Below are positions 7,023 to 53,591 of a DNA stretch of 64,000 nt, piece by piece. The position numbers and the translations under genes are program-made. Source of the stretch: Thermoplasmata archaeon (lineage in GTDB: Archaea > Thermoplasmatota > JASEFT01 > JBBABA01); NCBI GenBank assembly GCA_041657955.1, contig JBBABA010000001.1:106419-170418 (forward strand). Direction: 5' to 3'. The number at the start of each line of letters is the position of its first letter. The first letter of the stretch is position 1. A model generated the notes under the pieces. The model ran no database searches, was not told the DNA's origin, and saw only the letters and a program-made list of their open reading frames with translations.

Positions 7023-7158
7023 GGCAAAAAATTATCCTATCAATTGTAAGTTTTATGCAACTTCACATTGAAGTTGACATTAAATGACTGAAAGACACAA
7101 TAATAAAGGTCGAGACACCAACAAGGTTTATTATGCCGGATATAATTAGTGAAATACA

Positions 7159-20990: not shown

Positions 20991-20995
20991 AAGAA

Positions 20996-21966: not shown

Positions 21967-21967
21967 T

Positions 21968-33538: not shown

Positions 33539-35584
33539 CTAAATCTTCTGTTTCTCACAATATATGGAGAATGTAATATCTTTTCTTTGAGCCTTGGCGT
33601 TTTTAACTGTATCATCTATCTCTCCAATAGAATGTAATAATCTAAGGAAATATCCACCATGTTTAACTTCGCGATAATTAATCATTGGGGCGTTATATAA
33701 TTTAGATTTATCTGAGTATACCTTGATCTTTTTATCTTTATCTCCTACTTCGATCCATCCTTCGGTGGCACCCAAGCAATGTTTAGACGACACCATAGAA
33801 CTTGCAGGTTCGTCATGTGATATGGTGTGGCCCTTTAATTCATGCGTCTCTGCAATTTTTCCACCATTATGCGTGGCGTAAAATAGCGAGTCACAATCGA
33901 AAGCATCCGGAATAAAAGTGATAATTCCCGTGCGAAACGTTGCAAGTGGATTTTCATGAAAATCAAAAGAATAAGAAATATCCAATCGCTGCTCTAATAA
34001 GTAAATCTGTATATCCTTGTATATCGTGCCTATATGTGTGTTAATTGCACCTTTAATTGAAACGAATTTATCGGACTCATTATAATCGTTAGGCAGTTTT
34101 GGAGACACCCTCTCCAAATCTGCGATTTTACTTTTGCCTGGGATTTCAATAATTGTATGACCGGTATAATAATCCGCACCGAGTGAAATATCATCATAGT
34201 AGCCATGTGGTAGCGTGCCAATCAACGGTTGCTCCGATATGCCCTTAAATATTACAGAGTCGATAGATAATCCGCGTCTGCTGTTCAAAACGACTTTTAA
34301 TTTCTCAGTTTCAATGATAACCATATTGCCTTGTTGCGTCACTGTTGGTCGAATTTCTACCTTCGATTTTTCGAATACCGTATCCCTCTGTAGCCCGTTT
34401 TCAATGTTTCCTACACTATTCGACACAACCGAGAGAGCATCATTTAATCTTTCTTGAAACGCGAGATATCTTTTCTCTTCAATATGGGTCCTAAAATCGC
34501 TGCTCCACAGAAAGCAAAGTTCCTTCCATAAATCATTTAATTTACGTTCATCAGCACGTTTTATATTTTGAGTATTGTCATCTCGGTAACCAGATTCGAT
34601 GCGCTTTAAGCATTTGTAAATTCTATAGCATTTTGTATTATTACCTATGTTGTCTCTGCCACTTAGAGCCCATCGAGTGATATTGTATTTTTCCTGTTTT
34701 TTGACAGGGATAGGATCTTCTGGGGATTCCAGTTTTATATGATTGAACGAGTTGTCTCCTTCTGCAAGACCAGGGACTCTTGACGGCGCGACGATTTCAA
34801 AATTCGGATTCGCAGATAATTCTTTAAACAATCTCGTAATCCTAGTCCATTCCCCATCCTTACATATATCTACCTCAGTATCATAGCGCCCCGGCCTATA
34901 ATCAAATATTTCAATATCGTTGCCATAGAGGGGGAAAAACCGAACAGATTCCCCTAAATGAGAGTGCAAGTAGTTCATATATTCATCTAACTCGATTTCC
35001 CCTTGCGCATATCTTTGAAACTTTTGAAAAAATATCGAATTATTCCAGATAACTGGTATATTTTTTCCATTTGAATCCATTGCTGTTTGAGGGAAATACT
35101 GCCACTCCTTTGGCCATTCGGGGTGGTACCTGTAGGGATTGTTCCACTCCATTACAATGGCTTTGTAACCCGCATCGAGGTAATGTTCTATTAATCCCGG
35201 AGAATATGCCTGTTCATTCACCCAGGCAATTTGTGGTTTTTGTCCCAAGAACGATTGATACACCCGATGACCGATTTCCAAGTTGTAAGCATTTACTTCA
35301 GATGGCACTAGAGGGCCGATAAGTTGGGTGTATCCCGAACCTATGAACTCACACGCATCATTCATCCAAAGCTCTTTTAGTTTTTTTATCCACGATGGAG
35401 AGATTTCATTAATCTTTTCTAAAGTATATCCTGGGGATTCTATTCCCAGTGGGGTCTTCATTTCTTCACAGATATTCAAAAGTGGCCAGAAGCATCGTTC
35501 TATTACCTGAGGATAATCTTTCTCTGGAATCGAAGAGAATGCGAGATTTAGATGGAAGATCGCGTATAGATGGAGTTTTTTCAT
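33539..35584 (-). CDS. Glycoside hydrolase family 57-like protein (divergent first motif)
   Basis: EFIGSGYTQLIGPLVP (~EIVxxGFYEPVLA.IP), AWVNEQAY (~WLTERVW, nucleophile region) and EWNNPYRYHPEW. The canonical HQP motif is replaced by FHLNLAF. Confidence 0.5.
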   Translation of the reverse strand: MKKLHLYAIFHLNLAFSSIPEKDYPQVIERCFWPLLNICEEMKTPLGIESPGYTLEKINEISPSWIKKLKELWMNDACEFIGSGYTQLIGPLVPSEVNAYNLEIGHRVYQSFLGQKPQIAWVNEQAYSPGLIEHYLDAGYKAIVMEWNNPYRYHPEWPKEWQYFPQTAMDSNGKNIPVIWNNSIFFQKFQRYAQGEIELDEYMNYLHSHLGESVRFFPLYGNDIEIFDYRPGRYDTEVDICKDGEWTRITRLFKELSANPNFEIVAPSRVPGLAEGDNSFNHIKLESPEDPIPVKKQEKYNITRWALSGRDNIGNNTKCYRIYKCLKRIESGYRDDNTQNIKRADERKLNDLWKELCFLWSSDFRTHIEEKRYLAFQERLNDALSVVSNSVGNIENGLQRDTVFEKSKVEIRPTVTQQGNMVIIETEKLKVVLNSRRGLSIDSVIFKGISEQPLIGTLPHGYYDDISLGADYYTGHTIIEIPGKSKIADLERVSPKLPNDYNESDKFVSIKGAINTHIGTIYKDIQIYLLEQRLDISYSFDFHENPLATFRTGIITFIPDAFDCDSLFYATHNGGKIAETHELKGHTISHDEPASSMVSSKHCLGATEGWIEVGDKDKKIKVYSDKSKLYNAPMINYREVKHGGYFLRLLHSIGEIDDTVKNAKAQRKDITFSIYCEKQKI

Positions 35585-35587
35585 GAT

Positions 35588-36799
35588 TTATACCCGTTCA
35601 ACTTCGATTTTTATTTTTTTAATGACTTTTTCTGCAATTTTTATTGCCTGCTCGCGTGTTTTACCAATAGCAACCACATATCCATGTCTGTCTGTATGAT
35701 TTTCGATTCTAGGTACTATATTTCCTACTTTTATCACATCATCGATTGTTAATTCGTACACACCTTCGATTTTTCTCGCTTCTGATATGCCTGAAATGCT
35801 CACAATTTTACCGGGGTCCGGGAAAATAAATCTTTCTGCTACGCCCTTGGTAAATTTAGGTACTAACCAATCCAAATTAGGCTCGATATTTACAGCCATT
35901 TCGATAAGAGGATATAGTATATTAGCTCCATTAGATAACGGTACTTTTAAGGAACAAAATCTTCCACCACTGGTTCTTGCAGCCATTTCAATTACTTTGG
36001 GGCCTTCACTGTCTATTAGGATATCTCCTTTTGCCACGCCCCATGTTAATCCAAGCGCTTTAATGGCTTTCTCTACTACATGCAATACTTTGTCTAACTC
36101 CTCTTTTGACAACCTTGTTGGCAATTCACCGCCATCTTCGATGAAAAATGGGTCAAAAGACTTCTTATCGCTATAATTCCTATCTGCGATGCAAGGCGTA
36201 TAAATTTTGTCATTATATATCACAGATTCGGTACTTATCTCAAACCCCTGGAGGTACTCCTCCACTAAAATGGTTTTTTGCTTTGAAAAACTCAATGAAT
36301 ACTTGTAATATTTTTCAATATCAGCAATCGATGAAATCTTTACAACACCTCTTGCTCCAGAATTGTCAATAGGTTTAAAAACAACAGGAAATCCCAAATT
36401 TTCAGCAACTATCTTTGCTTCCTCTATAGAAGATGCGCTAAAAAATCGAGATGTAGGTACATTGTTTTTCTTAAAACACTGGATTCTTTTCAGTTTATTG
36501 GTAGCTCGTTCTGCTATTTCCGGGTCAATTCCAGGCAAATTTAATGCGCGAGCTACTTTAGCCACAACAACAGGAATCTCTACTCCATGTGTCATTACCC
36601 CATCTATTTTGTATTTTTTACCGATCTCGATTAGTTTGTCCACATCTTTAATATCCGCGTTTATTCCCACATCTGCAATTTTTAGGCCGGGTGCTTTTGG
36701 ATTTTGATCTACTACAATAACCCTCAAACCCATCTCTTTAGCAATTTGAATTGCAGTTACTTGCTCAATACCAGCGCCTAGCAACATTATAGTTTTCAT
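35588..36799 (-). CDS. ATP-grasp family ligase
   Basis: PurK/carboxylase-like ATP-grasp layout: IMLLGAG...GFPVVFKP...SGARGV...EEYLQGFEIS. Start refined to MKTIMLLGAG, abutting the upstream SDR stop. Confidence 0.7.
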   Translation of the reverse strand: MKTIMLLGAGIEQVTAIQIAKEMGLRVIVVDQNPKAPGLKIADVGINADIKDVDKLIEIGKKYKIDGVMTHGVEIPVVVAKVARALNLPGIDPEIAERATNKLKRIQCFKKNNVPTSRFFSASSIEEAKIVAENLGFPVVFKPIDNSGARGVVKISSIADIEKYYKYSLSFSKQKTILVEEYLQGFEISTESVIYNDKIYTPCIADRNYSDKKSFDPFFIEDGGELPTRLSKEELDKVLHVVEKAIKALGLTWGVAKGDILIDSEGPKVIEMAARTSGGRFCSLKVPLSNGANILYPLIEMAVNIEPNLDWLVPKFTKGVAERFIFPDPGKIVSISGISEARKIEGVYELTIDDVIKVGNIVPRIENHTDRHGYVVAIGKTREQAIKIAEKVIKKIKIEVERV

Positions 36800-36800
36800 T

Positions 36801-37550
36801 TTATCCAAAATATAAGCCACCGTTTACATTTATTGTTTGACCTGTAATATAACTAGCTTTCTCGCTTGCAAGAAATACAACAACATTGGCTATCTCTTCA
36901 GCGGTGGCAATTCTTCCTATGGGAATACTTCTAACTTTTTCTCTTCCAGCCGGAGTTGTCATCTCTGCGACAATCATGTCTGTATCCACTAATCCCGGTG
37001 AAACTGCATTTGAGGTAACCCCATTCTTACTGTAAATGCGAGCTAAAGATTTGGTTAGATTAATCAACCCCGCTTTTGCTATGGCATAATGAACTTGGTT
37101 CACTCCCCCCCACTGTCCGCCTATTGAACAAATATTGATAATTCTTCCCCACCCTTGCCCTATCATATCGGGTATTGCCTCCTGGCAAAAAATAAACGGC
37201 CCCCGGAGATTTACAGCCATCATATTGCCCCAATCTTCGTCATTAATTGTTTCGAATGGTTTCTCCTGGGTAAGTGCAGCATTATTTACTAGGATGTTTA
37301 ATTTACCAAAATTTTTATGCACTTCCTCAATAACTTTGTGTATATCGCCCCTACTTTTTTGGTCAAGTTTTATACATATTGCTCTACTGCCTTTACTTTC
37401 TATCTCTTTAACTACAGCAACGGCTTTTTCTTTGTTGGTGTTATATGTCAGTGCAACGTTTATTCCTTCCTTGGCCAAAGCTATTGCTATTGCCCTTCCA
37501 ATGCCACGGCTCCCACCGGTTACCAAAGCAGTTCTCTCTTCCATCAACAT
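36801..37550 (-). CDS. Short-chain dehydrogenase/reductase (FabG-like)
   Basis: ALVTGGSRGIGRAIA, NNAA and YAIAKAG motifs. Confidence 0.85.
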   Translation of the reverse strand: MLMEERTALVTGGSRGIGRAIAIALAKEGINVALTYNTNKEKAVAVVKEIESKGSRAICIKLDQKSRGDIHKVIEEVHKNFGKLNILVNNAALTQEKPFETINDEDWGNMMAVNLRGPFIFCQEAIPDMIGQGWGRIINICSIGGQWGGVNQVHYAIAKAGLINLTKSLARIYSKNGVTSNAVSPGLVDTDMIVAEMTTPAGREKVRSIPIGRIATAEEIANVVVFLASEKASYITGQTINVNGGLYFG

Positions 37551-37561
37551 TTTATGCTCTC

Positions 37562-39262
37562 CTAGGGATCTAAAGTAACATGCGTTCGTAAGCCCATCTC
37601 CACCTCACAGAGGATCGGGCCCTTAGTATCAAGAACGGCCCTAATTTTTTGCGCTAACCCATCTTGTGAAGCGATTTTAGATGCCTCAATCTTGTACGCA
37701 CGGGCAATTGCCAAAATATCTGGAATTGAATAGCCATACTTCGGGGATGATGCAAAATAGCGGCCCCCAAGCTTTGAATCCTGATAATCCATAATTGCAC
37801 CGTATGAATGATTGTTCAGAACAAATATCTTAACTGGCAGATTGTACGAACGAATTGTCTGCAACTCTTGAATGTTTAACTGAATAGCGCCGTCACCAAT
37901 GGTACAAATAACCCGTGGAGAACCATCTCTGTAATGGACTGCAACCCCAATCGCGGCTGGCATTGAATAGCCCATTGTAGAGTGCGCTGTATCGGTAAAA
38001 AGTCTCTGTTGAGCACGTACTTCCACTGCTTGCATAGCCCACATCACGTTCTGTCCTGCATCTGCAATCAATATATCATCATCGGCCATCTGTTCAGATA
38101 ATGTTTTCATAAATACGTAGGGATTTACCGCGTCTTTTTCTGAATAATATTCTGGTTTACAAAAAGGATTTTCCTCAAAACTATTCCTCGTTTGTTTTCG
38201 CCAAACAGAGAACTGTGGGCAGCCATCTTTTTCCAACTCACTCAAAAGAAGGGTCAAGAACTCTTTAGCATCACATGCAAGTGATAGGTCTGTTGGCACA
38301 CGTTGATTTAATTCGTCGGGATCGATGTCAACATGGACCAATTTACCATTCGGTACAAAGTCCTTTGGTTTCATTTTTACCTGACGTAAGGTTAAACGAG
38401 TTCCAACTGCCAAAACCAAGTCACTCTTGGTAAGAGAAATATTCGTTGCGCGATTACCCATCACGCCAATCAATCCAGAATAGAGAGGACTATCATGAGC
38501 AAACGTGTCCACTCCACCAAAGGTTACAGCGACTGGTATATCACCTAGTGTTGCCAAAGCCTTGATTTCATCCGTTGCTCTCGCATTACGAACTCCGCCT
38601 CCGCTGATGATCATCGGACGCTTAGATTTTCGAATCCAGTCAGCAACGACTGTTACTTTCTCTCGAATGCTGTTGTTGTCCTCTGGACGGGTTTCGTCTG
38701 GTTCATAAGCTCTTAGTTCCCTTGCCACTATTTCTGCCCACTGTATGTCCATTGGCAAATCAATCAACACAGGCCCCGGCCGACCTGATTGCGCTATCCA
38801 AAGTGCTTTCTCTAATTCATAGCGAATATCATGCGGATTTGTAATCATAACAGCATACTTTGTTAAAGGTTTTACAACACTCACGATGTCTGTTTCCTGA
38901 AAGCCAACCTGACGTTGTTTGCTTTCACCCTTGTAATCGTGTGTTTGAACTTGCCCTGTAAAATATATGGCAGGAATGGAATCATAATAGGAGCAGGCAA
39001 TTCCTGTCACTAGATTGGTAGCACCTGGACCACTGGTAACAGCCATAGCGCCAATCTTATGAGTTGCTCGTGCGTACCCATCCAGTGCTATTGCCCCAGC
39101 TTGTTCATGCATTACACAGATGGGCGTTAACTTGCCGGTACGAAGGTTGAGATTATATACAGAATCTACCAGATGGGATATTGCCCCTCCGGTGAAGATA
39201 AACACATATTCCACGCCGTGTTTTACCAAAAATTCCGCAACATAGTCTGTTAATTTCATCAC
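37562..39262 (-). CDS. Thiamine-diphosphate-dependent enzyme, acetolactate synthase large-subunit-like
   Basis: N-terminal GVEYVFIFTGGAISHLVD...HEQAGAIALDGYARAT. C-terminal ThDP motif GDGAIQLNIQEL...N...YG. Confidence 0.85.
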   Translation of the reverse strand: MMKLTDYVAEFLVKHGVEYVFIFTGGAISHLVDSVYNLNLRTGKLTPICVMHEQAGAIALDGYARATHKIGAMAVTSGPGATNLVTGIACSYYDSIPAIYFTGQVQTHDYKGESKQRQVGFQETDIVSVVKPLTKYAVMITNPHDIRYELEKALWIAQSGRPGPVLIDLPMDIQWAEIVARELRAYEPDETRPEDNNSIREKVTVVADWIRKSKRPMIISGGGVRNARATDEIKALATLGDIPVAVTFGGVDTFAHDSPLYSGLIGVMGNRATNISLTKSDLVLAVGTRLTLRQVKMKPKDFVPNGKLVHVDIDPDELNQRVPTDLSLACDAKEFLTLLLSELEKDGCPQFSVWRKQTRNSFEENPFCKPEYYSEKDAVNPYVFMKTLSEQMADDDILIADAGQNVMWAMQAVEVRAQQRLFTDTAHSTMGYSMPAAIGVAVHYRDGSPRVICTIGDGAIQLNIQELQTIRSYNLPVKIFVLNNHSYGAIMDYQDSKLGGRYFASSPKYGYSIPDILAIARAYKIEASKIASQDGLAQKIRAVLDTKGPILCEVEMGLRTHVTLDP

Positions 39263-40146
39263 TACCTCTCTTTCTTATGTTTCAACCTTCTTGTGTTATT
39301 ATACCACTCTTCTATTTTACGTAAATTTTCTTTTTCGATAGGATATATGTTCTCTTTTTGAGGGAACTTCCTTTTTCTGACTTCATCGGCATATCTTCCA
39401 ACAGCATCTGTAATATTTTCTCCAATGTCAGCATATCTTTTAATAAATTTTGGAACAAACCACTCAAACATTCCTAGAATGTCATGAATTATAACAAGTG
39501 TACCATCTACTTGATCTCCTGCTCCAATTCCATATACGGGAACAGATAAAGCTTTAGCTATTAACCCAGCAGATTCGGCAGGCATTGCTTCAAGTAACAA
39601 GAATGAAATTCCCGCTTCCTGCAGAGCTAAAGCATCTTCTAGAATCATTTTGAAACTATCCAGTGTTTTCCCCTGCACTCTATAGCCGCCAAAAGAAGCT
39701 GTACTTTGTGGGGTCAACCCTAAATGGCCCATCACAATAATACCCGAATCCACCATTGCTTTAACTCTTGGGGCCATTCCTTTTCCACCTTCAATTTTCA
39801 CAGCGTCACACCCCACTTTTATGAATTTTCCGGCATTGACCACAGCATCCCTATCTGAAGGCTGGTAAGACATATAGGGCATATCTCCGATAACAAAAGA
39901 GAATTCAACTGCTCTACATACGGCTGAGGCCATTGTTATCATTTCATCCATGGTAACCGGATTTGTTGTTTTATAACCGAGAGTTGTCATTCCGCCCGAA
40001 TCTCCCACGAGAATCATGTCAACCCCAGCTCTATCGGCGTACAAGGCAAATGGGTAATCATACGAAGTTATGAATACCGCTTTTTCCCCTTCTTTTTTCA
40101 TTTTTTGCAGATCCAAAAGAGTTTTTTTTCTTCCTTCTTTTTTCAT
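39262..40146 (-). CDS. panB: 3-methyl-2-oxobutanoate hydroxymethyltransferase (ketopantoate hydroxymethyltransferase)
   Basis: Strong match to PanB across its length: ITSYDY, ADRAGVDMILVGDSGGM, TTNPVTMDEM, DMPYMSY, KIEGG, HLGLTPQS, GIGAG. Confidence 0.85.
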   Translation of the reverse strand: MKKEGRKKTLLDLQKMKKEGEKAVFITSYDYPFALYADRAGVDMILVGDSGGMTTLGYKTTNPVTMDEMITMASAVCRAVEFSFVIGDMPYMSYQPSDRDAVVNAGKFIKVGCDAVKIEGGKGMAPRVKAMVDSGIIVMGHLGLTPQSTASFGGYRVQGKTLDSFKMILEDALALQEAGISFLLLEAMPAESAGLIAKALSVPVYGIGAGDQVDGTLVIIHDILGMFEWFVPKFIKRYADIGENITDAVGRYADEVRKRKFPQKENIYPIEKENLRKIEEWYNNTRRLKHKKER

Positions 40147-40362
40147 GTTTCTTCCCCCCCATGTCCTTCTCATCTGTCACTATCTTTTGTTTGTAACAAT
40201 TTCACACTCAATACTTCCGCTACCTCGATATTCATGCTGCTTCTCACCAAACTTGCAAGGATATTTGTCCAGTTCTATATTAACTTAATTATATTGCCCC
40301 TTATTTCCTGAATGACATAATATACTTTTTCATTGAAATTAACCTCATCTGGTTTTATAATT

Positions 40363-40530
40363 TGTTTACTGTGCGCTTTTGTCACATACTGGGCAGACAT
40401 AATCTATCCCCACCTTTACCAATGCGTCTAACAACGGGGTGACTGTTCCCCCAGGGAAGAGAAATACTCTCTTCACACCAATTGATTTTAAAGTTTTAGC
40501 AATATTTTCAGCACCTAACATTTTCATCAT
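40363..40530 (-). pseudogene. N-terminal fragment (54 codons) of a second ThDP-dependent enzyme gene
   Basis: MMKMLGAENIAKTLKSIGVKRVFLFPGGTVTPLLDAL matches the ThDP-enzyme N-terminal module (G.E.L...GV..VFG.PGG..L...DAL), then stops. Below the 60-aa ORF cutoff. Confidence 0.5.
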
Positions 40531-41701
40531 CCACGAATATTCCTGTATCGAAACTTATTATCTTATCATATATTTTTATCTGAGTGATGTGTGGAAAATT
40601 AACCTTAAGATAATCTGAAATCTCTTCCTGACTATCATACGATGAAATAAACACAGGTATATTTTTATTTTTTAGAATCTCTGGACTCTGTACTTCATAT
40701 CCCTCGAACAACATTCCGTGTTTTTTTGGATTGAAGTCGACAATACAATCAATTTTAACATTATTGAGTAATCCAGATTGAAGAAGTTGAGTTGTATGCA
40801 TACCTGCACCATATATAATTATTTTCTTTATGTTGGGATTTATTTTGGATTTAAGATGTTGTATAAACTTCGTTCTTCGATGCTTATACTCCTTCATTAT
40901 ATTTTTATTTATTTCATACTCATTTTTTAAAGTACACTTTTCGACTTTTTCATTTTTCAGTAATATTCTTATAATCGGTATCTCTTGTAATTTCTCAACT
41001 GCTACAACATGTAAACCCAAAATGCTGGCAATATTTCTGAGGGACCCCTCGGTATAATGCATGATATGTTGATTCGAAAAAAAATCAGCGATATTGTTAA
41101 CGAAAGGTCTACTTGTATCTGGAACTTCTATATAAATATATTTATTTGGATTTGTAATTTTAATAGTTGATTTTAAAAAATCAAGTGGATTTTGAATATG
41201 CTCCAGAACGTGTATTATTGTAATTATATCAAATTTTTCGCTAAATGAATTTAAAAAATTTTCATTAAAAAACCCTTTGATTATTCTAATTCCATATTTG
41301 TTCATAGCTTCTTGAACTCCTTCTTCTGAAGGTTCAATACCAAAAACAACGTACCCTCTGCTCCTTGCAATATTTAGGAATCTCCCATCAAAAGCTCCGA
41401 TATCAAATATCGATTTGCAATTTTTTGGGGTATTGTTGTATATGAACTCTAGTTGTGACCTTCTGAAAAAGTCGGATCTCTCACCATACCTCATATCTGA
41501 TTTATAAAAATGTTCTAAGGTTTTATCTGTTGGTCGAGGATTGGTAAAAATCATCCCACAAGTCGTACAGATTGCCTGTTGTGCTGTCCAAATAAATAAT
41601 TTATTTTTACCCCATACTCTATACTCTTTTTTATAAACCACTTCGTAATCCTTGGAACTACATATAGGACAATTTATCTCTCTCGTTTCTATTTCCTCCA
41701 T
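40508..41701 (-). CDS. SAM-dependent methyltransferase with N-terminal zinc ribbon (sugar C-/O-methyltransferase-like architecture)
   Basis: CPICSS...CTTCG zinc ribbon, then class-I MTase motif FDIGAFDGRF, and a C-terminal extension as in NDP-hexose C-methyltransferases. Confidence 0.7.
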   Translation of the reverse strand: MEEIETREINCPICSSKDYEVVYKKEYRVWGKNKLFIWTAQQAICTTCGMIFTNPRPTDKTLEHFYKSDMRYGERSDFFRRSQLEFIYNNTPKNCKSIFDIGAFDGRFLNIARSRGYVVFGIEPSEEGVQEAMNKYGIRIIKGFFNENFLNSFSEKFDIITIIHVLEHIQNPLDFLKSTIKITNPNKYIYIEVPDTSRPFVNNIADFFSNQHIMHYTEGSLRNIASILGLHVVAVEKLQEIPIIRILLKNEKVEKCTLKNEYEINKNIMKEYKHRRTKFIQHLKSKINPNIKKIIIYGAGMHTTQLLQSGLLNNVKIDCIVDFNPKKHGMLFEGYEVQSPEILKNKNIPVFISSYDSQEEISDYLKVNFPHITQIKIYDKIISFDTGIFVDDENVRC

Positions 41702-41703: not shown

Positions 41704-42705
41704 TTACCTACCACCTACAACTATCTGACTCACTCGTTTTGCACCTTTTCCATCAATCAATTCCACTCCATTAGATGAAATTTTCTTTATAAAATCGTTG
41801 CGGTTGGCTATCCCTTCAAACCTTCTTTTAAATGTAGTAAAATCAAGATTTTTATAGTATCCTAATGATACCAGCAGTCCTTTTTGTTCCAACTCGTTAG
41901 CGTATTTAATGTCGTCGTCAATATAACGATTTATTACGACTGGTGGAATACCTAGATACAAAAATTCGAAAACACTCACACCAAAGCCACAGATTACAAA
42001 TTTCCAAGGACCGAGGGTATCGACAATTTTCCAATTAAACTCATGTGCCTCAATGTGGTTACATTCGGAGCAGATATCTCTAATTTCAGATTTAAATTTA
42101 TAATTCTTGCCCATAAGAACTGTAAAATCGAACTTTGGTAACCGTGCCAAATAGTCGATAAAATGTCCCAACATATCGTTTGGGTCACTTCCTCCAAAAG
42201 TAACAACGACTCTGTTTGAATTTACATCGAAAAGAGGTTTCCCCCCCTTTTTGATAATGTTTGGATTCAACAACACATATTCCGGGCCATGAAGCACCGT
42301 GACATGGCGTGGGATTCTCTTAAGCTCGGGCGGCTCATACAAATACGGGAAGACGGCAATATCTGCCTTCTCTACTATCTTGGACGCGTTATCTATAATT
42401 ACCAATTTTGATCCAGTACCTTTTATTCCATCTACCAACTGTTTAGGTATTTCCTTCAAATCCAGAACAACTACATCCGGCGCTTTATCTTTTATTTCAG
42501 ATAGTACATTGTCAACAGGATGTGAGTTAATGATATTTAATCGAATCCATTTCTTTTGAAGTTCTAGCGGGGTATCTGTATAAAAGTATATAGCCGAATC
42601 TGGTTCCAAACAATGAACCTCTTCCGCTATTGACAAACAACGAGAAAAATGACCGAATCCTATCTGTTCGTTGGATAAAAAATAAAAAATGAACGTTCTA
42701 GACAA
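41704..42705 (-). CDS. pseG: PseG-like UDP-sugar hydrolase (MurG-like GT28 fold)
   Basis: N-terminal QIGFGHFSRCLSIAEE matches the PseG G.GH..R motif. About 330 aa, two-domain layout. Confidence 0.6.
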   Translation of the reverse strand: MSRTFIFYFLSNEQIGFGHFSRCLSIAEEVHCLEPDSAIYFYTDTPLELQKKWIRLNIINSHPVDNVLSEIKDKAPDVVVLDLKEIPKQLVDGIKGTGSKLVIIDNASKIVEKADIAVFPYLYEPPELKRIPRHVTVLHGPEYVLLNPNIIKKGGKPLFDVNSNRVVVTFGGSDPNDMLGHFIDYLARLPKFDFTVLMGKNYKFKSEIRDICSECNHIEAHEFNWKIVDTLGPWKFVICGFGVSVFEFLYLGIPPVVINRYIDDDIKYANELEQKGLLVSLGYYKNLDFTTFKRRFEGIANRNDFIKKISSNGVELIDGKGAKRVSQIVVGGR

Positions 42706-42761
42706 CTAGCACCCTCCTTTATGCATATCTCTTTTTCTAGACAAACGATGTCCCCAATATA

Positions 42762-43691
42762 TCAAGGTTTACCCCATAAACTAGGATTAATTATCTTCTC
42801 AGGAGCGCTCCCCAGATTATTTATTTCTTGGATTGTTTCTTTTGCAAGTTTTCCTTTTTTTAATATTCTCAGATTTTCGATTAATTGCTCCGTTTTTTCC
42901 ACACCTATCAAAACGCTATCCAACTCATTGATACTAAGATTATATCTTAATGCTAGCTCTCCTATCGTTATATTATTCTCTTCACATATTGTCAATATCC
43001 TCTGGCGATATAGCCAAAATTCTTTTAGTTTATCTGGAATGTTGTCTTTAAAAAACAATCCTTGTAAAAACACGCTTCTTGCAAGCACAGTAATTCCTTT
43101 TCTTTTTGCTTTTTTAAGAAAACCATTTTCAAGCAGCCTTTTGTCTATGAGGTTGAAAGGCACTTGTATTACTTCAACACCTTCGATATTCAACGCCTTT
43201 TCCGCTTCATCTGGTGCGTATGTTGAAACACCAATCTTTTCTATAATTCCTTCTAATTTTAATCTCTCCAACTCCCTTAGGATAAGGCCATTCTCTTTTA
43301 TGGCATCTTCAAATCTGTGAAACAGATATATGGACAATGTTTTAATCCCAAGGTTTTCTAGAGTTTTTTTGACATTTTTTTTGACGCTATCGACAATAGT
43401 TTCTTTGTTTTTGTCCCAGTTAGTGGGAGGAACCTTTGATATGAATACTAATTTCCCACTGTCAAATTCTTTAAGACACGCCCCCAATATTTTTTCGCTG
43501 TCTCCATATTCGGGCGCGGTATCAAACGTATTTATTCCATTTTCAACTGCGTTTTTGATTATGGACGCGCTCTCTCCAAAACTGGGTTTGCCAGTAATAT
43601 TATTTATACCATAATTCATTCCTAGTTGCGCGGCGCCGAGACACAATCTAGAAATTTGAACGCCTGTTTTTCCTAATTTAGAGTATTCCAT
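42762..43691 (-). CDS. Aldo/keto reductase
   Basis: MEYSKLGKTGVQISRLCLGAAQLG...FDTAPEYG, typical AKR N-terminus. Confidence 0.85.
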   Translation of the reverse strand: MEYSKLGKTGVQISRLCLGAAQLGMNYGINNITGKPSFGESASIIKNAVENGINTFDTAPEYGDSEKILGACLKEFDSGKLVFISKVPPTNWDKNKETIVDSVKKNVKKTLENLGIKTLSIYLFHRFEDAIKENGLILRELERLKLEGIIEKIGVSTYAPDEAEKALNIEGVEVIQVPFNLIDKRLLENGFLKKAKRKGITVLARSVFLQGLFFKDNIPDKLKEFWLYRQRILTICEENNITIGELALRYNLSINELDSVLIGVEKTEQLIENLRILKKGKLAKETIQEINNLGSAPEKIINPSLWGKP

Positions 43692-43713
43692 AATCCTTTG
43701 CTCACAATCATAA

Positions 43714-45027
43714 TCAGTCTTTTGTTAGGCGATAAAATCCCCTTCGCGCTATTGGTCCTTTAAGCATCTTCTCTACATAGTTCTTCTCGATAGCCTCAGC
43801 AATCCCAAAGAATACCTCTTTTGTCTCTTTTAAATATTTTTTGATGTGGACATCTTTATGTGCATAAGAAGATTTGAACTGGTTCCAAGCCAGAAAGCCT
43901 CTTTTCAACATCTCCTGGGTGAATAGTGTGGATATTGCTAAATCATTTTCATACTTGAAAGAAAAATGGCTTAACGGTGGAATCCCCTCGATACCTATTT
44001 TCAAACCAGTTTCATCAGCAATCTCTTTCCAACCCTTTTGAATTTTTTCGCCAACATCTATAAGGTGCTCTGCTACTTTTTCTTGTTTAAACTTCTTGAT
44101 TGTTGCCAATGCTGCAACGGGTCCTATCCGCTCTGACCAGTTTGTACTGCTGATAAATGTAGACTGTGCCGCTTCCATTATCTCTTCCTTGCCTATTACC
44201 GCAGCCATGGGATATCCATTCGCCATAGCCTTTGCGAAAACCGCCATATCTGGATTGACCCCTAATCGCAAATGAATTCCACCCGTGTTCATTCTAAAGC
44301 AAGAAGTGATTTCATCGAAGATCAAAACCGCACCCGTAGATGAAGCGATTTTTCTAATAGACTCTAAAAAGCCGCTCTTCGGGGTAGCTTCTCTTAAAGG
44401 CTCCATTATTATTGCCGCTAGTTCTTTCTCATTTTCGGAAACTATTCTTTCAAGCTCTTCTATTTTATTATAATGAAATGGTAGTGCAGTACCCTTTAAA
44501 CTGCGAGGTACGCCTGCAGGCTCTAATCCTGGCATAAGCTGACCATCTAAGGCATTGTTCTCTCCTAGGTTTGCAGCCAGATACCAGTCACACCAACCAT
44601 GATATCCACAAAAGGCAACCTTATCCCTCCCAGTTGCAGCCCTAGCTATCCTTATTGCCATGGATGCCGACTCACCACCAGATCGTGCGTAGCGTACCAT
44701 TTCCGCCCATGGGTGAAGTTTACACAACAGTTCAGCCAGTTCTACTTCCTCTGGGCAATTTAGCGTCGAAGCAATTCCATTATCAATAGCTTTCTTAACG
44801 GCATTGTCTACATCTCGGTCCGCATACCCGAGAATACACGCACCTATACCCATTATGCTCATGTCTATGTACTCGTTTCCATCTAAGTCTACAACATTTA
44901 CTCCCTTTGCTTTTTTATAGTATGCTGGCCATAATTCCGGTAAAAACATTTCAGAACGCTTTGAAAGCAGTTGAGTGCCACCGGGAATAAGCCTGCGCGC
45001 CTTCCTATAAAGTTTCTGACCCTTCAT
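43714..45027 (-). CDS. Class-III (glutamate-1-semialdehyde aminomutase-like) PLP aminotransferase
   Basis: IPGGTQLLSKR, DLDGNEYID and FDEITSCFRMN motifs. Start overlaps the upstream stop (ATGA); GGAGGAG RBS. Confidence 0.85.
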   Translation of the reverse strand: MKGQKLYRKARRLIPGGTQLLSKRSEMFLPELWPAYYKKAKGVNVVDLDGNEYIDMSIMGIGACILGYADRDVDNAVKKAIDNGIASTLNCPEEVELAELLCKLHPWAEMVRYARSGGESASMAIRIARAATGRDKVAFCGYHGWCDWYLAANLGENNALDGQLMPGLEPAGVPRSLKGTALPFHYNKIEELERIVSENEKELAAIIMEPLREATPKSGFLESIRKIASSTGAVLIFDEITSCFRMNTGGIHLRLGVNPDMAVFAKAMANGYPMAAVIGKEEIMEAAQSTFISSTNWSERIGPVAALATIKKFKQEKVAEHLIDVGEKIQKGWKEIADETGLKIGIEGIPPLSHFSFKYENDLAISTLFTQEMLKRGFLAWNQFKSSYAHKDVHIKKYLKETKEVFFGIAEAIEKNYVEKMLKGPIARRGFYRLTKD

Positions 45028-45809
45028 GACTTCTCCTCCCAAAATTTCTCATAGCCCTCTTCACCTATAAAATGAACGTTCTTCTTCAGTAATTTTGGAT
45101 TTTTTTTGAAGAAATTAAGCACATCTTTCATATCGAAATCTGGTTTTTTGGGATACAATTCAGCGTATATCGTACTTACAACCTCAAAATCTTCCTGGTT
45201 ATCTACTGTCCATCTCATTTTCGAATAGTCAACATCGCTCTTGTAAGAACTAACTTTGAATCTTTCAGGCCTCTTCCAGATAAACGGGGTCACGTGTTCT
45301 CTTTCCAGTTGTTCTTTTGCCTCTCTCCATGCGGTTTCAAGCACGGAAAAGCTGAAGACCTCTGCGTCAAGGCCATCCGGATAGCGGCAACCGTCAAATT
45401 TTTTATCAGCGACTCCTGCGCCCGTGGCAACACCGATAAAGTCATAATTTTTCGATCTTAAAAATAAGGTCAGAACCTTGTCTATTAATGTGGGATCGAC
45501 CAGAGGGCAGTCTGCTGTAATTCTAATCACAACATCCGCCTTATGCTCTTTTGCCGCTTTGTAGAACCTATCCAAAACATCGTTCTCGCTACCAGAAAAG
45601 CAACTAATCTTGTTTTCTTCGCATATTTTTCGTATAGAATCATTAATCCTCTCTTCAGAGGTGGCCACAACCACTTCGTTAATTTTCTTTACTTTCCTCA
45701 ATCTTTCTACTATATGCACCAGCATGGGCTTGCCGAGAATGGGTTTTAAAACCTTGCCTGGCAGACGGGTGGAGCTCATTCTTGCCTGTATGATTGCAAC
45801 AACCTTCAT
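45024..45809 (-). CDS. pseF: Cytidylyltransferase, acylneuraminate/pseudaminate cytidylyltransferase family (PseF/SpsF-like)
   Basis: MKVVAIIQARMSSTRLPGKVL signature of the CTP_transf_3 family. Confidence 0.75.
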   Translation of the reverse strand: MKVVAIIQARMSSTRLPGKVLKPILGKPMLVHIVERLRKVKKINEVVVATSEERINDSIRKICEENKISCFSGSENDVLDRFYKAAKEHKADVVIRITADCPLVDPTLIDKVLTLFLRSKNYDFIGVATGAGVADKKFDGCRYPDGLDAEVFSFSVLETAWREAKEQLEREHVTPFIWKRPERFKVSSYKSDVDYSKMRWTVDNQEDFEVVSTIYAELYPKKPDFDMKDVLNFFKKNPKLLKKNVHFIGEEGYEKFWEEKS

Positions 45810-46825
45810 TTCGAGACCTTCTTGTATGTAATGAACTCTCCTTTTTTAATTTCAGACGTCGTCTTTTTTCCGATCAGATTATAAACCTCTTTCGGTGGCA
45901 ACGAACCTTCCGGCGATGGCCTTACAACCATCAACATATCCTTGGTTATGGTTGTTCCTTTTGGGATTTCGCATTTGGCATATATCGCCCTTCTCCATGC
46001 TCTTTCGGTAAGTTCATGCTCAGATGGTCGAACTTCCTTAGCCCTCTTCATTTTTTCTACATCCCTTATCCCTGTTATCATTTGTTTTAACTCGTTTGGA
46101 TTTAGCGCGTAGGAATGATCAGGTCCAGGAAGCGATTTGTCTATGGTAAAATGTTTCTCTATTACGTTTGCGCCCATTGCAACCGCGGCTATCGACGCAT
46201 AAATCGTTGATGTATGATCTGAAAAACCCACTGGGACTCCAAAAACCCGTTTTAAAGCCAGCAACGAATTCAGATTAACATCATCCGTTTTAGCCGGGTA
46301 TTGGGAAACACAGTAAAGGAGAACGATTTGTTTGTTCCCTGTTGCGTACACACACTTAACAGTCTCTCTAATTTCATCCTCGTAAGCCATACCCGTCGAA
46401 ATTATGACGGGTTTATTTTTCTTTGCGATATGCTCAACAAGGGGGAGGTGTGATAGTTCATAGGATGCAATCTTATATGCAGTTACTCCTAAGGACTCTA
46501 ATAAATCAGCACTTTCTTCATCAAAAGCCGTAGAGAGGAAGATTAAACCTTTTTTATTTGCATATTCAAAAAGTTCTTTGTGCCACTCCTTACGAAGTGC
46601 CATCTTATTCAGTTTGTCAACAATCTCCTTATTCCTCACTTCATTAAACAATCTCTCGGCTATCCACGTTTGAAATTTTATGGCGTCTGCACCAGATTCA
46701 GCTGCGATATCGATTAGTTTCTTTGCTTGTTCCAATTTACCATCATGATTTGAGCCAACTTCAGCAATGACGAACGTCGGATTTCCTTCGCCGATCAGTT
46801 TATTGCCGATCCTTATATCCTTTAT
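45806..46825 (-). CDS. pseI: NeuB-family nonulosonic acid synthase (PseI/NeuB-like); conserved N-terminus lacks a canonical start codon
   Basis: GNPTFVIAEVGSNHDG...GADAIKFQT...SDHT motifs. The first in-frame ATG (46735) truncates the conserved N-terminus. The upstream 90 nt are in frame, with no ATG/GTG/TTG. Confidence 0.65.
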   Translation of the reverse strand: MKDIRIGNKLIGEGNPTFVIAEVGSNHDGKLEQAKKLIDIAAESGADAIKFQTWIAERLFNEVRNKEIVDKLNKMALRKEWHKELFEYANKKGLIFLSTAFDEESADLLESLGVTAYKIASYELSHLPLVEHIAKKNKPVIISTGMAYEDEIRETVKCVYATGNKQIVLLYCVSQYPAKTDDVNLNSLLALKRVFGVPVGFSDHTSTIYASIAAVAMGANVIEKHFTIDKSLPGPDHSYALNPNELKQMITGIRDVEKMKRAKEVRPSEHELTERAWRRAIYAKCEIPKGTTITKDMLMVVRPSPEGSLPPKEVYNLIGKKTTSEIKKGEFITYKKVSK

Positions 46826-46837
46826 ACAAACCCCTCC

Positions 46838-48052
46838 TTATCCGATTATGTTAGTTACTGCCCGTATAACACTTTCCACGTCGTTATCCGCCATCTTTGG
46901 ATAAAGTGGTAAACTCAAAGCTTGTTGATAAAATGTCATGGTATTCGGAAAGTCGCTATCAACATACCCAAAACGGCTTCGATAATATGGTTGTAGATGT
47001 ACTGGAATATAATGTACCTGTGAGCCAACCCCCCGTTCTTTTAATTCGCTCATTACTTGAGCGCGGCTCTTTCCAATATTTCTAAAATCTATCCTGATTA
47101 CATACAGGTGGTAAGATGATTTTGCACCATCTTTCTCAATGGGTACGATTACATTCTTCAGTTTTTTAAAGGCCGCATTATATCGGCTTACAATCCAACG
47201 GCGGCGCTCGACAAATAGATCTAACTTCTTCAGTTGGGTTATTCCAAGAGCACATTGAAAATCAGTCATGCGATAATTATAGCCTAGCTCCTGCATTTCA
47301 TAATACCAAGGATTAACCTCAACCTTTTTGGTTTTTGGATTGAGGGAAAAGGCCAGATCTTTGTTTATGAATCTGTTGGAATCTTTAGTAATTCCATGCG
47401 TCCTAAAGAGGAGTAGTTTTTGATAAAACTTCTCATTATTGGTCAGAACCATTCCGCCTTCACCAGTAGTTATGTGTTTAACGGGATGGAAACTAAGTAC
47501 TGTCATATCTGCAATGCTTCCTATCTTCCTCTCTTTGTATTCTGCACCCAAAGCATGGGCAGCATCTTCAATTACACATAAATTATTCTTCTTAGCAATT
47601 CTCATTATTTCGTCCAATTCACACGGATGGCCAGCAAAATCAACAGGTATTATCGCCTTCGTTTTTGTGGTTATATTTCTTTTAATTTCGGCGGTATCTA
47701 TAGTGTATGTACCTAATTCTATATCTGCAAAGACAGGTTTGCCGCCTACGTAGAGGACACTGTTTGACGATGCTACGAACGTCAGGGGTGAAGTTATTAC
47801 CTCGTCGCCTTCCGATATGCCTGCAGCAAAACAGGCAGTGTGCAGCGCAGCAGTGCCGCTAGAAACCGCTACAGCGTATTTTGCACCAACATAGTTCGCT
47901 ACCAAACCCTCGAACTCACTTACTTTCGGGCCCTGGGTTATAAAATCACTTTTTAAGGTCCGTAACACCTCATTAATATCATCATCACTAATCCATTGTT
48001 GCCCGTAGGGTAGTGTTTTTTTAACAGTCGTATGGTTTGTCGATTTTTTCAT
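46838..48052 (-). CDS. pseC: DegT/DnrJ/EryC1/StrS-family PLP aminotransferase (PseC-like)
   Basis: FITQGPKV, AVSSGTAALH and PVDFAGHPCELDEI (active-site Lys region). The TAA stop is immediately followed by GGAGGGG. Confidence 0.8.
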   Translation of the reverse strand: MKKSTNHTTVKKTLPYGQQWISDDDINEVLRTLKSDFITQGPKVSEFEGLVANYVGAKYAVAVSSGTAALHTACFAAGISEGDEVITSPLTFVASSNSVLYVGGKPVFADIELGTYTIDTAEIKRNITTKTKAIIPVDFAGHPCELDEIMRIAKKNNLCVIEDAAHALGAEYKERKIGSIADMTVLSFHPVKHITTGEGGMVLTNNEKFYQKLLLFRTHGITKDSNRFINKDLAFSLNPKTKKVEVNPWYYEMQELGYNYRMTDFQCALGITQLKKLDLFVERRRWIVSRYNAAFKKLKNVIVPIEKDGAKSSYHLYVIRIDFRNIGKSRAQVMSELKERGVGSQVHYIPVHLQPYYRSRFGYVDSDFPNTMTFYQQALSLPLYPKMADNDVESVIRAVTNIIG

Positions 48053-48074
48053 AAGTATCACCAATTTCACAATT

Positions 48075-49022
48075 CTATGTCAAGTTGGGATTGTTCCTTA
48101 TCCATGTTTCTGTTAGTTTAGTACCTTCCTCTAAAGACGTTTTCGGCACCCAGCTCAACAGCTCTTTTGCTTTGGAGCAGTTGCATAATAATTTTTGAAT
48201 CTCGCTTTGGGGGTGTATGTGTTTGACGTGCTTAATCCTCGATTTATCATTTACTATCAACATCGCCAGATCGTTAATAGAAATATCCTTTCCCATACCC
48301 GCGTTTATTATTTCGCCATTTACTTTATCACTATAACCAGCACCTACCACAAACCTTGCACAGTCCTCAACATACATCAAATCTCTTGTTTGTGTTCCGT
48401 CGCCATATATATTCAATGTTTGATTGTTTAAATTTCTTTTAATAAATATTGCTACCACACCGCCTTCTCCAGTAGTTTTTTGAAACGGCCCATATACATT
48501 AAACGGCCTTAGGACAACTACTGGCAACTTATATGCAAACCAGTACGATCGCACCACATTCTCTCCCGCAATCTTTGAACCTGCATATGGCGATGCGGGT
48601 TTTGTTGGGTGATTTTCATCTATCCCAGACTCATCCTTTGACCGATCATAAACCATACATGTGCTCATGAATACCATTTTTGTATCATACGTTCTGCAAT
48701 GTTCCAATACATTAAAAGTGCCTATAACGTCATTGTTAAATGTTGTTTGTGGATCGTCAATGCTATCTTGTACGTTTATCTTGGCGGCTAGATGATAACA
48801 GATGTCCAATTCGTTTTTGAATAGCTTTTTTATCGTTTTTTTATCATTTATGTTTCCTTTTGTTAAACCTTTAAAATTTGGTATTTTGTCAAAATCGGAA
48901 ACATTGCTAATCCTACCATTCGACAGGTCGTCCAATGCCCATACGTAATGCCCCTCATCTAATAGGTATTTAACTACCCATCTCCCTATAAACCCAGCAC
49001 TACCGGTTACCAGTATATTCAT
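48075..49022 (-). CDS. NAD-dependent epimerase/dehydratase
   Basis: ILVTGSAGFIGRW and YAGSK motifs. Confidence 0.85.
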   Translation of the reverse strand: MNILVTGSAGFIGRWVVKYLLDEGHYVWALDDLSNGRISNVSDFDKIPNFKGLTKGNINDKKTIKKLFKNELDICYHLAAKINVQDSIDDPQTTFNNDVIGTFNVLEHCRTYDTKMVFMSTCMVYDRSKDESGIDENHPTKPASPYAGSKIAGENVVRSYWFAYKLPVVVLRPFNVYGPFQKTTGEGGVVAIFIKRNLNNQTLNIYGDGTQTRDLMYVEDCARFVVGAGYSDKVNGEIINAGMGKDISINDLAMLIVNDKSRIKHVKHIHPQSEIQKLLCNCSKAKELLSWVPKTSLEEGTKLTETWIRNNPNLT

Positions 49023-50011: not shown

Positions 50012-50267
50012 AGATACATCTCCGATTGGATATAATAAGCGAAAACCACTCCATGTATATAAATTAAATGCTAGAAAGTACCAAAAATCCACACACTTAT
50101 TCTCTATGTATTCTTTGTACCTAAACACTTATCTGATTTTCTTTTATGTACGAACATAGCGGTCACTTATGGCATCAAATAACTCTAGCCATAACGTTTC
50201 GATTTTATAACATTCGAAAAAGTAGGTAGAGCGTTTTATAACTTCCCAGAGAATCGTCAATTTATTG

Positions 50268-52721: not shown

Positions 52722-52722
52722 C

Positions 52723-53451: not shown

Positions 53452-53591
53452 TATTACACCATTTTGATTCCATATTAGTCTACTCATAAATATAATTAAT
53501 GTTGCCAAAAATCATTTAACTGTCTATTCTATTCCCTACAATAATATAAATAAACTATCAATCATATAGATGAAAACCTAGGTGTGAGAGT

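Follow-up and report, generated by a model that had tools for sequence, protein, structure and literature searches.

A PanB paralogue and a YerE-like carboligase in an archaeal nonulosonic-acid locus: a candidate cassette for glycan acylation

The 64-kb window analysed here (the whole stretch of DNA under study, 64,000 nucleotides long) comes from a 458,766-bp contig of a metagenome-assembled genome of a Thermoplasmata archaeon and carries a glycan island, in which a paralogue of the vitamin B5 enzyme PanB is encoded directly ahead of a thiamine diphosphate (ThDP)-dependent carboligase of the YerE-like type (here termed ThDP2), a FabG-like short-chain dehydrogenase/reductase (SDR) and an ATP-grasp ligase. 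Our main finding is that approximately 1.6 kb of a resident ThDP gene resembling acetohydroxyacid synthase (AHAS) was replaced at this site by a 2.9-kb segment carrying PanB and ThDP2, with a short 5' stub of the older gene preserved beside it. For the biochemical outcome we favour, tentatively and with somewhat less than even confidence, a pathway in which PanB would feed a hydroxymethylated 2-oxo acid to ThDP2, the SDR would reduce the product and the ATP-grasp enzyme would couple the resulting acid to a sugar.

Four intact genes make up the site, all on the minus strand and abutting or nearly so. The PanB gene (39262..40173; MFA5771230.1, annotated from M10 = 40146 to give 294 aa) and the ThDP2 gene (37562..39259; 565 aa, MFA5771229.1) together lie in the inserted segment, the ATG of the second beginning three bases past the stop codon of the first. 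They are followed by the SDR gene (36801..37550; 249 aa, MFA5771228.1; adh_short_C2 at 1e-63) and by the gene for an ATP-grasp carboxylate-amine/alcohol ligase of the L-amino-acid-ligase type (35588..36820; 410 aa, MFA5771227.1, 403 aa from the annotated start); the four window proteins are identical to these public entries. Ahead of the PanB gene lies the stub of the ancestral ThDP gene (40366..40521, minus strand), consisting of approximately 46 codons and then a stop (MLGAENIAKTLKSIGVKRVFLFPGGTVTPLLDALVKVGIDY..stop), and ahead of that a gene for a methyltransferase dependent on S-adenosylmethionine (SAM) (40508..41701, minus strand; 397 aa, PF13489 and PF08484). In the direction of transcription the order is thus a pseudaminic acid (Pse)-type gene set, methyltransferase, ThDP stub, PanB, ThDP2, SDR, ATP-grasp and GH57-like protein. 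The first-pass annotation had placed these genes and the ThDP fragment here, with a GH57-like gene downstream and methyltransferase and Pse-type genes upstream, and profile searches and domain matches bear out all of them. It had also leaned towards a glycan-related rather than a housekeeping role, which agrees with the content of the window: the scanned open reading frames (ORFs) of at least 150 aa encode glycan functions, a transposase or proteins without a family match, and none of them is a pan, coenzyme A (CoA) or ilv gene, including ilvC, ilvD and the gene for the AHAS small regulatory subunit.

The four genes had further been read as one module, a view that synteny comparison does not sustain, as close relatives carry genes for methyltransferase, ThDP enzyme, SDR, ATP-grasp and GH57-like protein without PanB. 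In related loci L001-L005 this arrangement lies beside genes for NeuB and a CMP-transferase, while a capsule-type locus, L008, combines a shorter methyltransferase gene with those for a ThDP enzyme (576 aa), SDR and ATP-grasp and has no GH57-like gene. Relatives of the ATP-grasp protein at 82%, 70% and 59% identity are encoded with methyltransferase, ThDP enzyme (575-579 aa) and SDR next to NeuB and a CMP-transferase, the first two also with a GH57-like gene, and PanB is absent from the module in all three. Five different locus types preserve the order ThDP-SDR-ATP-grasp with the genes abutting, and in L001, L004, L007 and L105 the same Pse-type gene set as in the window is found together with the ATP-grasp module. 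A comparable set is known from Shewanella oneidensis MR-1, where sfmABCDE (SO_3261-SO_3265) encodes a NeuB-like protein, an IlvB-like ThDP enzyme (SfmB, 581 aa), an SDR of the 3-oxoacyl-reductase type (SfmC, 255 aa), a SAM methyltransferase (SfmD, 395 aa) and an ATP-grasp protein (SfmE, 412 aa; Bubendorfer et al. 2013, PMC3765264). We refer to the AHAS-like ThDP genes of the related loci as sfmB-type.

Alignment of the window with L001 and L003 delimits the exchange. Nucleotide homology (77-78%) extends from the start of the SDR gene through the GH57-like gene (window 37536-33551); the only other stretch at this level is the opening 125-129 nt of the sfmB-type gene (40522-40394/40399). Over 43 aa, the peptide encoded by the stub shares 81% identity with the N-terminal ends of the ThDP enzymes from L001 and L003, as against approximately 31% with neighbouring ThDP2. 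The stub thus matches the sfmB type, whereas ThDP2 itself shares just 31-32% identity with the sfmB-type enzymes in those loci. The stub is therefore the footprint of a replacement and not the second, decayed ThDP copy first described; the candidate explanation of a decayed duplicate of the adjacent gene is ruled out by the same two values. Searches with tblastx and blastn-short against all fetched loci detected no other remnant and no 3' remnant of the old ThDP gene in the window, and found no match in any fetched locus that would indicate the origin of the 190-bp non-coding left junction (40174..40365, minus strand). Base composition is not decisive as a sign of foreign origin (GC 0.40-0.44 in the cassette, 0.31-0.43 in its neighbours). 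A 50-aa ORF between the methyltransferase and ThDP genes of L003 was also considered as a comparable stub and has no similarity.

The PanB paralogue is a canonical member of its family by sequence. It matches PF02548 over its full length (4.6e-101, 338 bits, cut-off 28.7) and exceeds the equivalog cut-offs of both TIGR00222 (293 bits, cut-off 207.6) and NF001452 (327 bits, cut-off 272). Residues D45, S46, D84, K112, E114, H136 and E181, which have catalytic and Mg-binding roles in the 1M3U structure, are kept, as is Ile202 (E. coli numbering, from the alignment to 1M3U). The residue equivalent to L47 is Gly, giving GDSGG instead of GDSLG.

The genomic context of its relatives points away from vitamin synthesis. 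In metagenome contigs scanned with a PanB alignment, a same-strand ThDP gene was found within 500 bp of PanB in 13 of the 15 informative loci whose PanB is at least 55% identical to that of the window, compared with 2 of 41 below 55% (Fisher p = 5e-9, a value that overstates independence, six of the PanB contexts having been hand-picked from top matches and the loci being related). All five inspected contigs with a PanB of at least 58% identity have an abutting ThDP gene on the same strand (575-604 aa), and all five are glycan loci, with genes for NeuB, DegT, nucleotidyltransferases, dehydratases or glycosyltransferases. PanB and ThDP genes lie side by side in L009, L010, L011, L014, L023 and L024, and a Bacteriovoracales genome has the pair near NeuB, while a PanB of 54% identity sits in an ordinary housekeeping neighbourhood; a scan of a genome collection with the PanB as single query returned only 10 loci, at 43-54% identity, the genome of the window itself not being among them. 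Because close relatives are linked to ThDP genes in glycan loci and distant ones seldom are, the window PanB probably serves glycan tailoring and not housekeeping. A role in pantothenate and CoA synthesis is not supported, with no pan neighbours in the window and the gene missing from the site in relatives.

Several of the best PanB homologues (63-69% identity) are fusions to a methyltransferase. Proteins P0121, P0122, P0123, P0127 and P0140 (502-523 aa) carry a C-terminal SAM methyltransferase domain on PanB, and in glycan loci L009 (3233-4795) and L010 (10001-11548) such a fusion gene directly follows a YerE-like ThDP gene encoding approximately 600 aa, an architecture that does not fit pantothenate synthesis. 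Two PanB copies lie close together in some loci, in tandem in L013 (8334-9595) and 1.7 kb apart in L040 (6001-9306), and PanB duplication may be the source of the glycan-linked paralogues. ThDP-linked PanBs differ from the others at positions beside the catalytic residues (L213V, V51T, V183M, T208V and I113V/C, E. coli numbering), a pattern that is suggestive but confounded with phylogeny. The motif variants GDSGG and GDSLA, as opposed to GDSLG, were considered as a marker of ThDP linkage and rejected, since P0151 (GDSLG) is linked and P0213 (GDSGG) is not.

The partner enzyme, ThDP2, has all three domains of its family (TPP_enzyme_N, M and C) and an intact GDG-X(24-27)-NN motif. It scores 425.7 bits against TIGR00118, the AHAS large subunit, under the cut-off of 538.35, and its best matches among solved structures are 5ahk (325 bits) and 8rph (294 bits), followed, with modest margins, by a plant AHAS (274 bits). 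We take 5ahk to be PpYerE. The literature confirms 8rph as JanthE, and both PpYerE and JanthE are YerE-like, ketone-accepting carboligases (PMC12247030, PMC12188165). In trees built by neighbour joining, a distance-based method only, ThDP2 and other PanB-adjacent ThDP enzymes cluster with these two proteins, apart from plant AHAS and from the sfmB type, the ancestral enzyme, which has plant AHAS as its nearest counterpart. The closest relatives of ThDP2 are of approximately 565 aa and share 59-77% identity. Some loci with PanB and YerE-like genes, such as L010 (4107-6159) and L024 (1104-3102, 10666-12404), also encode ThDP enzymes of the E1alpha/E1beta type or a split transketolase type; these represent the other known sugar-branching classes, and some glycans may therefore bear several C-C branches.

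In the published YerE-like scheme, a dedicated neighbouring aldolase provides a gamma-hydroxy-2-oxo acid to the YerE-like enzyme, which is followed by a reductase; transamination was noted by the authors as an alternative source of the 2-oxo acid, and ErwE accepts 4-hydroxy-2-oxobutanoate but not pyruvate (PMC9306805). ThDP2, with PanB immediately upstream and the SDR immediately downstream in a nonulosonic-acid locus, fits such a supplier/reductase neighbourhood, and by analogy the products of PanB (ketopantoate, 4-hydroxy-2-oxo acids) would belong to the substrate class of the scheme. A literature search found no publication linking PanB, or ketopantoate hydroxymethyltransferase (KPHMT), to YerE, branched sugars or O-antigen clusters.

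Among the closest ThDP2 relatives, the one inspected in its context, a ThDP2-type enzyme of locus L105 (62% identity), occupies the same slot, after the methyltransferase and before the SDR (56%), the ATP-grasp protein (56%) and the GH57-like protein (51%). There (4986-7842) a class-I/II aminotransferase gene and an extra SDR gene precede the ThDP2-type gene, and PanB is absent, which suggests that alternative 2-oxo-acid suppliers can serve one slot. Three arrangements of the slot were thus seen: an AHAS-like enzyme alone, an aminotransferase with ThDP2, and PanB with ThDP2. Because aminotransferases and PanB both generate 2-oxo acids, these contents fit the YerE scheme, and a swap in the ThDP slot would offer a means of diversifying the surface glycan.

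The best NCBIfam and PDB matches of the SDR are 3-oxoacyl-ACP reductases, and its identity to the SDR in the same slot is 79% in L001, 65% in L004 and 76% in L008, in addition to the value given for L105. The ATP-grasp protein matches PF18603 (LAL_C2; 1.6e-19, 70 bits, cut-off 29.4) together with ATP-grasp_3/4 (PF02655, PF13535), and among solved structures it scores best against 4dim and two L-amino-acid ligases, BL00235 and BacD, at up to 105 bits. All of the examined ATP-grasp homologues (51-82% identity) lie in NeuB/CMP-transferase loci. An ATP-grasp amide ligase that acts on a glycan is Cj1438 of Campylobacter jejuni, the capsule glucuronamide ligase. In a Hippea locus, L006 (7175-15606), three ATP-grasp-like genes, whose products are 26%, 54% and 36% identical to that of the window, are arranged around NeuB ahead of a GH57-like gene, and several acids or amines may be ligated in this one pathway.

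The GH57-like protein (33539..35584, minus strand; 681 aa) matches PF03065 on residues 21-207 only and yielded no match in a sequence search of solved structures. It is a conserved downstream partner of the ATP-grasp protein, following it directly or one gene later in L001, L004, L006, L007 and L105 with 39-73% identity. The methyltransferase, which occupies the methyltransferase slot of the module, matches PF08484, the C-terminal domain of sugar C-methyltransferases, at 31.6 bits (cut-off 23.5). Enzymes in this slot in L001, L003, L004 and L105 have 397-422 aa and are only 26-28% identical to that of the window where alignable (L003, L105). Loci L001 (5382-7557) and L003 (1534-3683) encode an identical ATP-grasp protein (P0002) but a different methyltransferase before the ThDP gene, a 409-aa CMAS-type enzyme in the first and one of the 397-aa type in the second; the methyltransferase is thus itself a swappable cassette, with strain-level variation in the slot.

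In the pathway that we favour, PanB would move a hydroxymethyl group from methylene-tetrahydrofolate onto a small 2-oxo acid, converting 2-oxoisovalerate to ketopantoate, or pyruvate or 2-oxobutyrate to a 4-hydroxy-2-oxo acid. ThDP2 would then join this acid, acting either as the decarboxylated donor or as a hindered ketone acceptor, with a second carbonyl compound, most simply pyruvate, to yield a 2-hydroxy-3-oxo acid with its carboxylate retained. Reduction of the 3-oxo group by the FabG-like SDR would follow, perhaps with methylation of the product by the methyltransferase, after which the ATP-grasp enzyme would activate the carboxylate and form an amide, or possibly an ester, on the nonulosonic acid or an amino-sugar precursor. 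The predicted decoration would amount to approximately +174.09 Da (C8H14O4) with ketopantoate or +146.06 Da (C6H10O4) with 4-hydroxy-2-oxobutanoate, with a further +14.02 Da for each methyl group, while the AHAS-like relatives would give +116.05 Da. We favour this sequence of steps because the ThDP, SDR and ATP-grasp genes are kept together in the five locus types, because the SDR is of the 3-oxoacyl type, because a ligation of the AHAS type onto a 2-oxo acid leaves in place the carboxylate required by an ATP-grasp enzyme, and because Pfam and NCBIfam searches detected no PseH-like acetyltransferase in the contiguous nonulosonic-acid operon. The opposite order, with the ThDP enzyme making a keto acid for PanB, had been proposed initially and is chemically unlikely, as an acetolactate-synthase product would need IlvC and IlvD, for which neither gene is in the window; since ThDP2 is YerE-like, placing PanB before it is the better order. 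The proposed acyl decoration fares better in part: a branched hydroxy acid built first and then attached by the ATP-grasp enzyme stays plausible, while a literal pantoyl amide (+130 Da) is possible but ranks behind other predictions.

A number of observations weigh against this pathway. We infer the substrates of PanB, of the carboligase and of the ligase from sequence, and the known physiological acceptors of YerE-like enzymes are nucleoside diphosphate (NDP)-4-keto sugars, not 2-oxo acids (PMC9306805, PMC12247030). The methyltransferase domain is typical of C-methyltransferases acting on NDP-keto sugars, and a PglD-like hexapeptide acetyltransferase is present elsewhere in the island (3058-3627). 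The enzymes are also found apart: in nonulosonic-acid loci of Hippea and Methanobacterium formicicum, ATP-grasp and GH57-like genes are paired without a ThDP enzyme or SDR gene, and the PanB-ThDP pair does not need the ligase, because pairs elsewhere have no ATP-grasp gene within 6-10 kb. Furthermore, the Shewanella sfm operon is required for an O-linked flagellin glycan composed of a mono-N-acetyl nonulosonic acid (274 Da) and a nitrogen-free outer moiety of 236 Da (C9H16O7), with up to two O-methyl groups (236-264 Da) and an unsolved structure; mutants without sfmB, sfmC or sfmD have no glycan at all, an sfmE mutant still makes a shortened one, and the outer moiety is easily lost in the ion source (PMC3765264). 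By analogy, this behaviour of mutants and of the moiety would fit a simple N-acyl amide poorly. The limits given with the linkage p-value and the distance trees, and below with the Sfm comparison, count on the same side.

The main rival, which we consider unlikely though a serious contender, is a C-branched sugar made strictly as by YerE, in which ThDP2 would decarboxylate the gamma-hydroxy-2-oxo acid from PanB and transfer the acyl group onto a nucleotide keto sugar such as the PseB product; reduction of the branch ketone would fall to the SDR, as with YerF, the methyltransferase would C- or O-methylate, and amidation by the ATP-grasp enzyme would be unrelated. The closest characterised relatives of ThDP2 are indeed ketone-accepting enzymes with nucleotide keto sugars as their known acceptors, the published order of aldolase, YerE-like enzyme and reductase is matched by such a reading, and it would accommodate both the sugar C-methyltransferase domain and the loss of the whole glycan in Shewanella sfmB-D mutants. 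In L011 and L023, moreover, the PanB-ThDP pairs lie among genes for an NTP-transferase, a 4,6-dehydratase and DegT, as in 3,6-dideoxyhexose pathways, with no ATP-grasp gene. However, with a branch at C4 the PseB product could no longer be aminated on the way to a 5,7-diamino nonulosonic acid, yet the DegT aminotransferase is kept, and the module has no additional nucleotidyltransferase or glycosyltransferase linked to it. Sugar-nucleotide reductases are typically extended SDRs, whereas the SDR here is FabG-like, and the strict ThDP-SDR-ATP-grasp order in diverse loci, including L008 and L105, suggests that the ligase uses the product of the ThDP enzyme and SDR, as in the pathway that couples a finished acid to the sugar.

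A literal pantoyl decoration, with PanB converting 2-oxoisovalerate to ketopantoate, the SDR reducing this to pantoate, the ATP-grasp enzyme forming a pantoyl amide (+130.06 Da) and the ThDP enzyme serving only precursor supply, is improbable in our judgement. Such a route would suit a PanB that passes the 3-methyl-2-oxobutanoate hydroxymethyltransferase equivalog and keeps the catalytic residues and Ile202, with a reductase and a carboxylate ligase encoded directly downstream. It is opposed by the chemistry already described, in which an AHAS-type product cannot reach 2-oxoisovalerate without the IlvC and IlvD not found in the window, by the YerE-like character of ThDP2 and its score below the AHAS cut-off, and by the substitutions of ThDP-linked PanBs beside the catalytic residues. 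Across loci, PanB is coupled to the ThDP gene and not to the SDR or ATP-grasp genes; the latter two were inherited from an ancestor lacking PanB and are 79-82% identical to those versions, and are therefore not tuned for ketopantoate or pantoate.

Even less probable is a non-functional mosaic, in which the exchange disrupted the pathway and left its genes to decay within a recombining island. An insertion sequence transposase, truncated genes and the gene stub are present, and the island is a patchwork relative to L001, with per-gene identities from 26% to 85%; yet PanB and ThDP2 are full length, tightly coupled and intact in their motifs, relatives at 91-95% identity occur in other metagenomes, and the combination of a ThDP2-type enzyme with SDR and ATP-grasp recurs independently in L105. 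A housekeeping panB for CoA that merely happens to be located in the island is very improbable and was rejected on synteny, for although the protein is approximately 60% identical to many PanBs annotated as ordinary and lies above the equivalog cut-off, the gene is missing from this position in the closest relatives, lies inside the 2.9-kb segment that replaced a glycan gene, has ThDP-linked nearest relatives in glycan loci (the 13 of 15 above) and methyltransferase-fused members in its clade, and has no pan or CoA neighbours in the window.

The wider island shows comparable mosaicism. The Pse-type core upstream of the methyltransferase (41704..50128, minus strand; assigned from Pfam and NCBIfam) comprises genes for a PseG-like protein (41704-42705), an aldo-keto reductase (42762-43691), a class-III aminotransferase (43714-45042), a CMP-sugar synthetase (45024-45809), NeuB (45806-46735), a DegT aminotransferase (46838-48070), an epimerase (48075-49022) and a PseB-like dehydratase (49019-50128), all on the minus strand. 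A comparison of proteins of window 28430-53508 with L001 gives 85% identity for the class-III aminotransferase and 73-82% for the SDR, ATP-grasp and GH57-like proteins, while NeuB and the CMP-transferase are at 46%, the aldo-keto reductase at 35% and the PseG-like protein at 26%; gene-sized cassettes seem to be exchanged often in this nonulosonic-acid locus. A DDE transposase gene lies beside a gene for a GT4-family (WecA-like) initiating transferase (3816-4778, 6159-7022), and near it a UDP-sugar dehydrogenase gene is missing the region for its UDP-binding C-terminal domain, which points to rearrangement at the island edge. Apparently truncated or split sugar-nucleotide genes occur at 30323-31147 and 52275-53508, one encoding an epimerase/dehydratase that matches its profile from position 44 and another an RmlD-like ORF with the first half of the profile, overlapping a cupin/RmlC-like ORF.

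Other modification and precursor genes are also present. A 692-aa protein with an aminoglycoside-3-N-acetyltransferase-like domain (residues 60-293) is encoded next to another FabG-like SDR, which is extended at its N-terminus by approximately 65 aa (16203-18281, 18479-19414). At 19857-22729 a PP-loop (NAD-synthase-like) gene is followed by overlapping HisH-like and HisF-like genes, a trio which we take to be the maker of acetamidino groups on amino sugars and which suggests that the island encodes another kind of N-modification. Two UDP-GlcNAc 2-epimerase genes (27308-28390, plus strand; 60240-61322, minus strand) and two full-length UDP-sugar dehydrogenase genes (32112-33422 and 58939-60204) suggest that there are two or more ManNAc(A)-type pathways, or else that cassettes were duplicated.

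Extending the favoured pathway beyond this locus, we put forward as a possible, more speculative proposal that many bacteria, and this archaeon, have taken a distinct clade of PanB paralogues into service as folate-dependent one-carbon side-chain starters, which would feed hydroxymethylated and possibly gem-dimethyl 2-oxo acids to YerE-like carboligases. Here the result would be a pantoate-related C8 polyhydroxy acid (approximately +174 Da) placed on a pseudaminic-type sugar by the ATP-grasp enzyme, and the ThDP slot would be a hot spot that exchanges supplier cassettes (none, aminotransferase or PanB) to vary the antigen. If true, this would represent a glycan substituent and a use of a vitamin B5 enzyme not previously described. 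Apart from this proposal, a gene annotated for vitamin synthesis is here reassigned to glycan tailoring. The recurrent pairing of PanB with a YerE-like enzyme would extend the scheme for acyl-branched and acylated sugars to a folate-dependent keto-acid supplier, and the swap footprint illustrates how archaea and bacteria vary nonulosonic-acid decorations by single-step exchange. The analysis also offers testable masses and enzyme pairs for the unsolved Sfm-type modification of Shewanella flagellin, and may be of interest in biocatalysis, where YerE-like enzymes and KPHMT are both used for tertiary alcohols and quaternary centres.

Among known systems, the window PanB resembles that of E. coli (1M3U) in family membership, in approximately 45% identity and in all catalytic and metal-binding residues, but differs from PanBs of the pantothenate pathway in that members of its clade occur beside a carboligase gene in glycan loci and in some cases carry a fused methyltransferase. 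ThDP2 shares with biosynthetic AHAS (IlvB/IlvI) the three-domain ThDP fold, 32-34% identity and membership of a class that performs 2-oxo-acid carboligation, whereas it falls under the AHAS cut-off and groups with YerE-like enzymes, with no small subunit, ilvC or ilvD gene found in the window. The ATP-grasp protein is like BacD and BL00235 in its fold and its LAL C-terminal domain; identity to them is low, and unlike ligases of that type it is dedicated to nonulosonic-acid loci.

The closest parallels are two systems in view of which the initial statement that no such pathway had been described was too strong, given that sfmBCDE is characterised genetically (PMC3765264) and the logic of supplier, carboligase and reductase is published (PMC9306805). 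The elements that are new here are the PanB paralogue clade as a keto-acid supplier and the preserved footprint of cassette exchange, while the Sfm-type module and the scheme of keto acid, YerE-like enzyme and reductase were known; a literature search returned nothing relevant joining ATP-grasp enzymes with acetolactate synthase in flagellin glycosylation. The YerE/YerF and ErwI/ErwE/ErwF systems (Steitz et al. 2022, PMC9306805; reviewed in PMC12247030) are alike in combining a keto-acid supplier, a YerE-like carboligase and a reductase, but their supplier is a pyruvate aldolase and their context a CDP-3,6-dideoxyhexose pathway, whereas the supplier here is a folate-dependent PanB paralogue and the context a nonulosonic-acid locus with an ATP-grasp gene. 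The likeness to Sfm, judged from domain content and protein size only, lies in a methyltransferase of 397 aa, a ThDP slot, an SDR of 249 aa and an ATP-grasp protein of 410 aa encoded beside NeuB, and in both cases a Pse-like nonulosonic acid would carry an extra methylated moiety. The window differs in its archaeal host, in a target other than bacterial flagellin and in the attached GH57-like gene; furthermore, while relatives L001-L005 and L008 have the full set, the IlvB-like member in the window is only a stub, in whose place stand PanB and a YerE-like enzyme.

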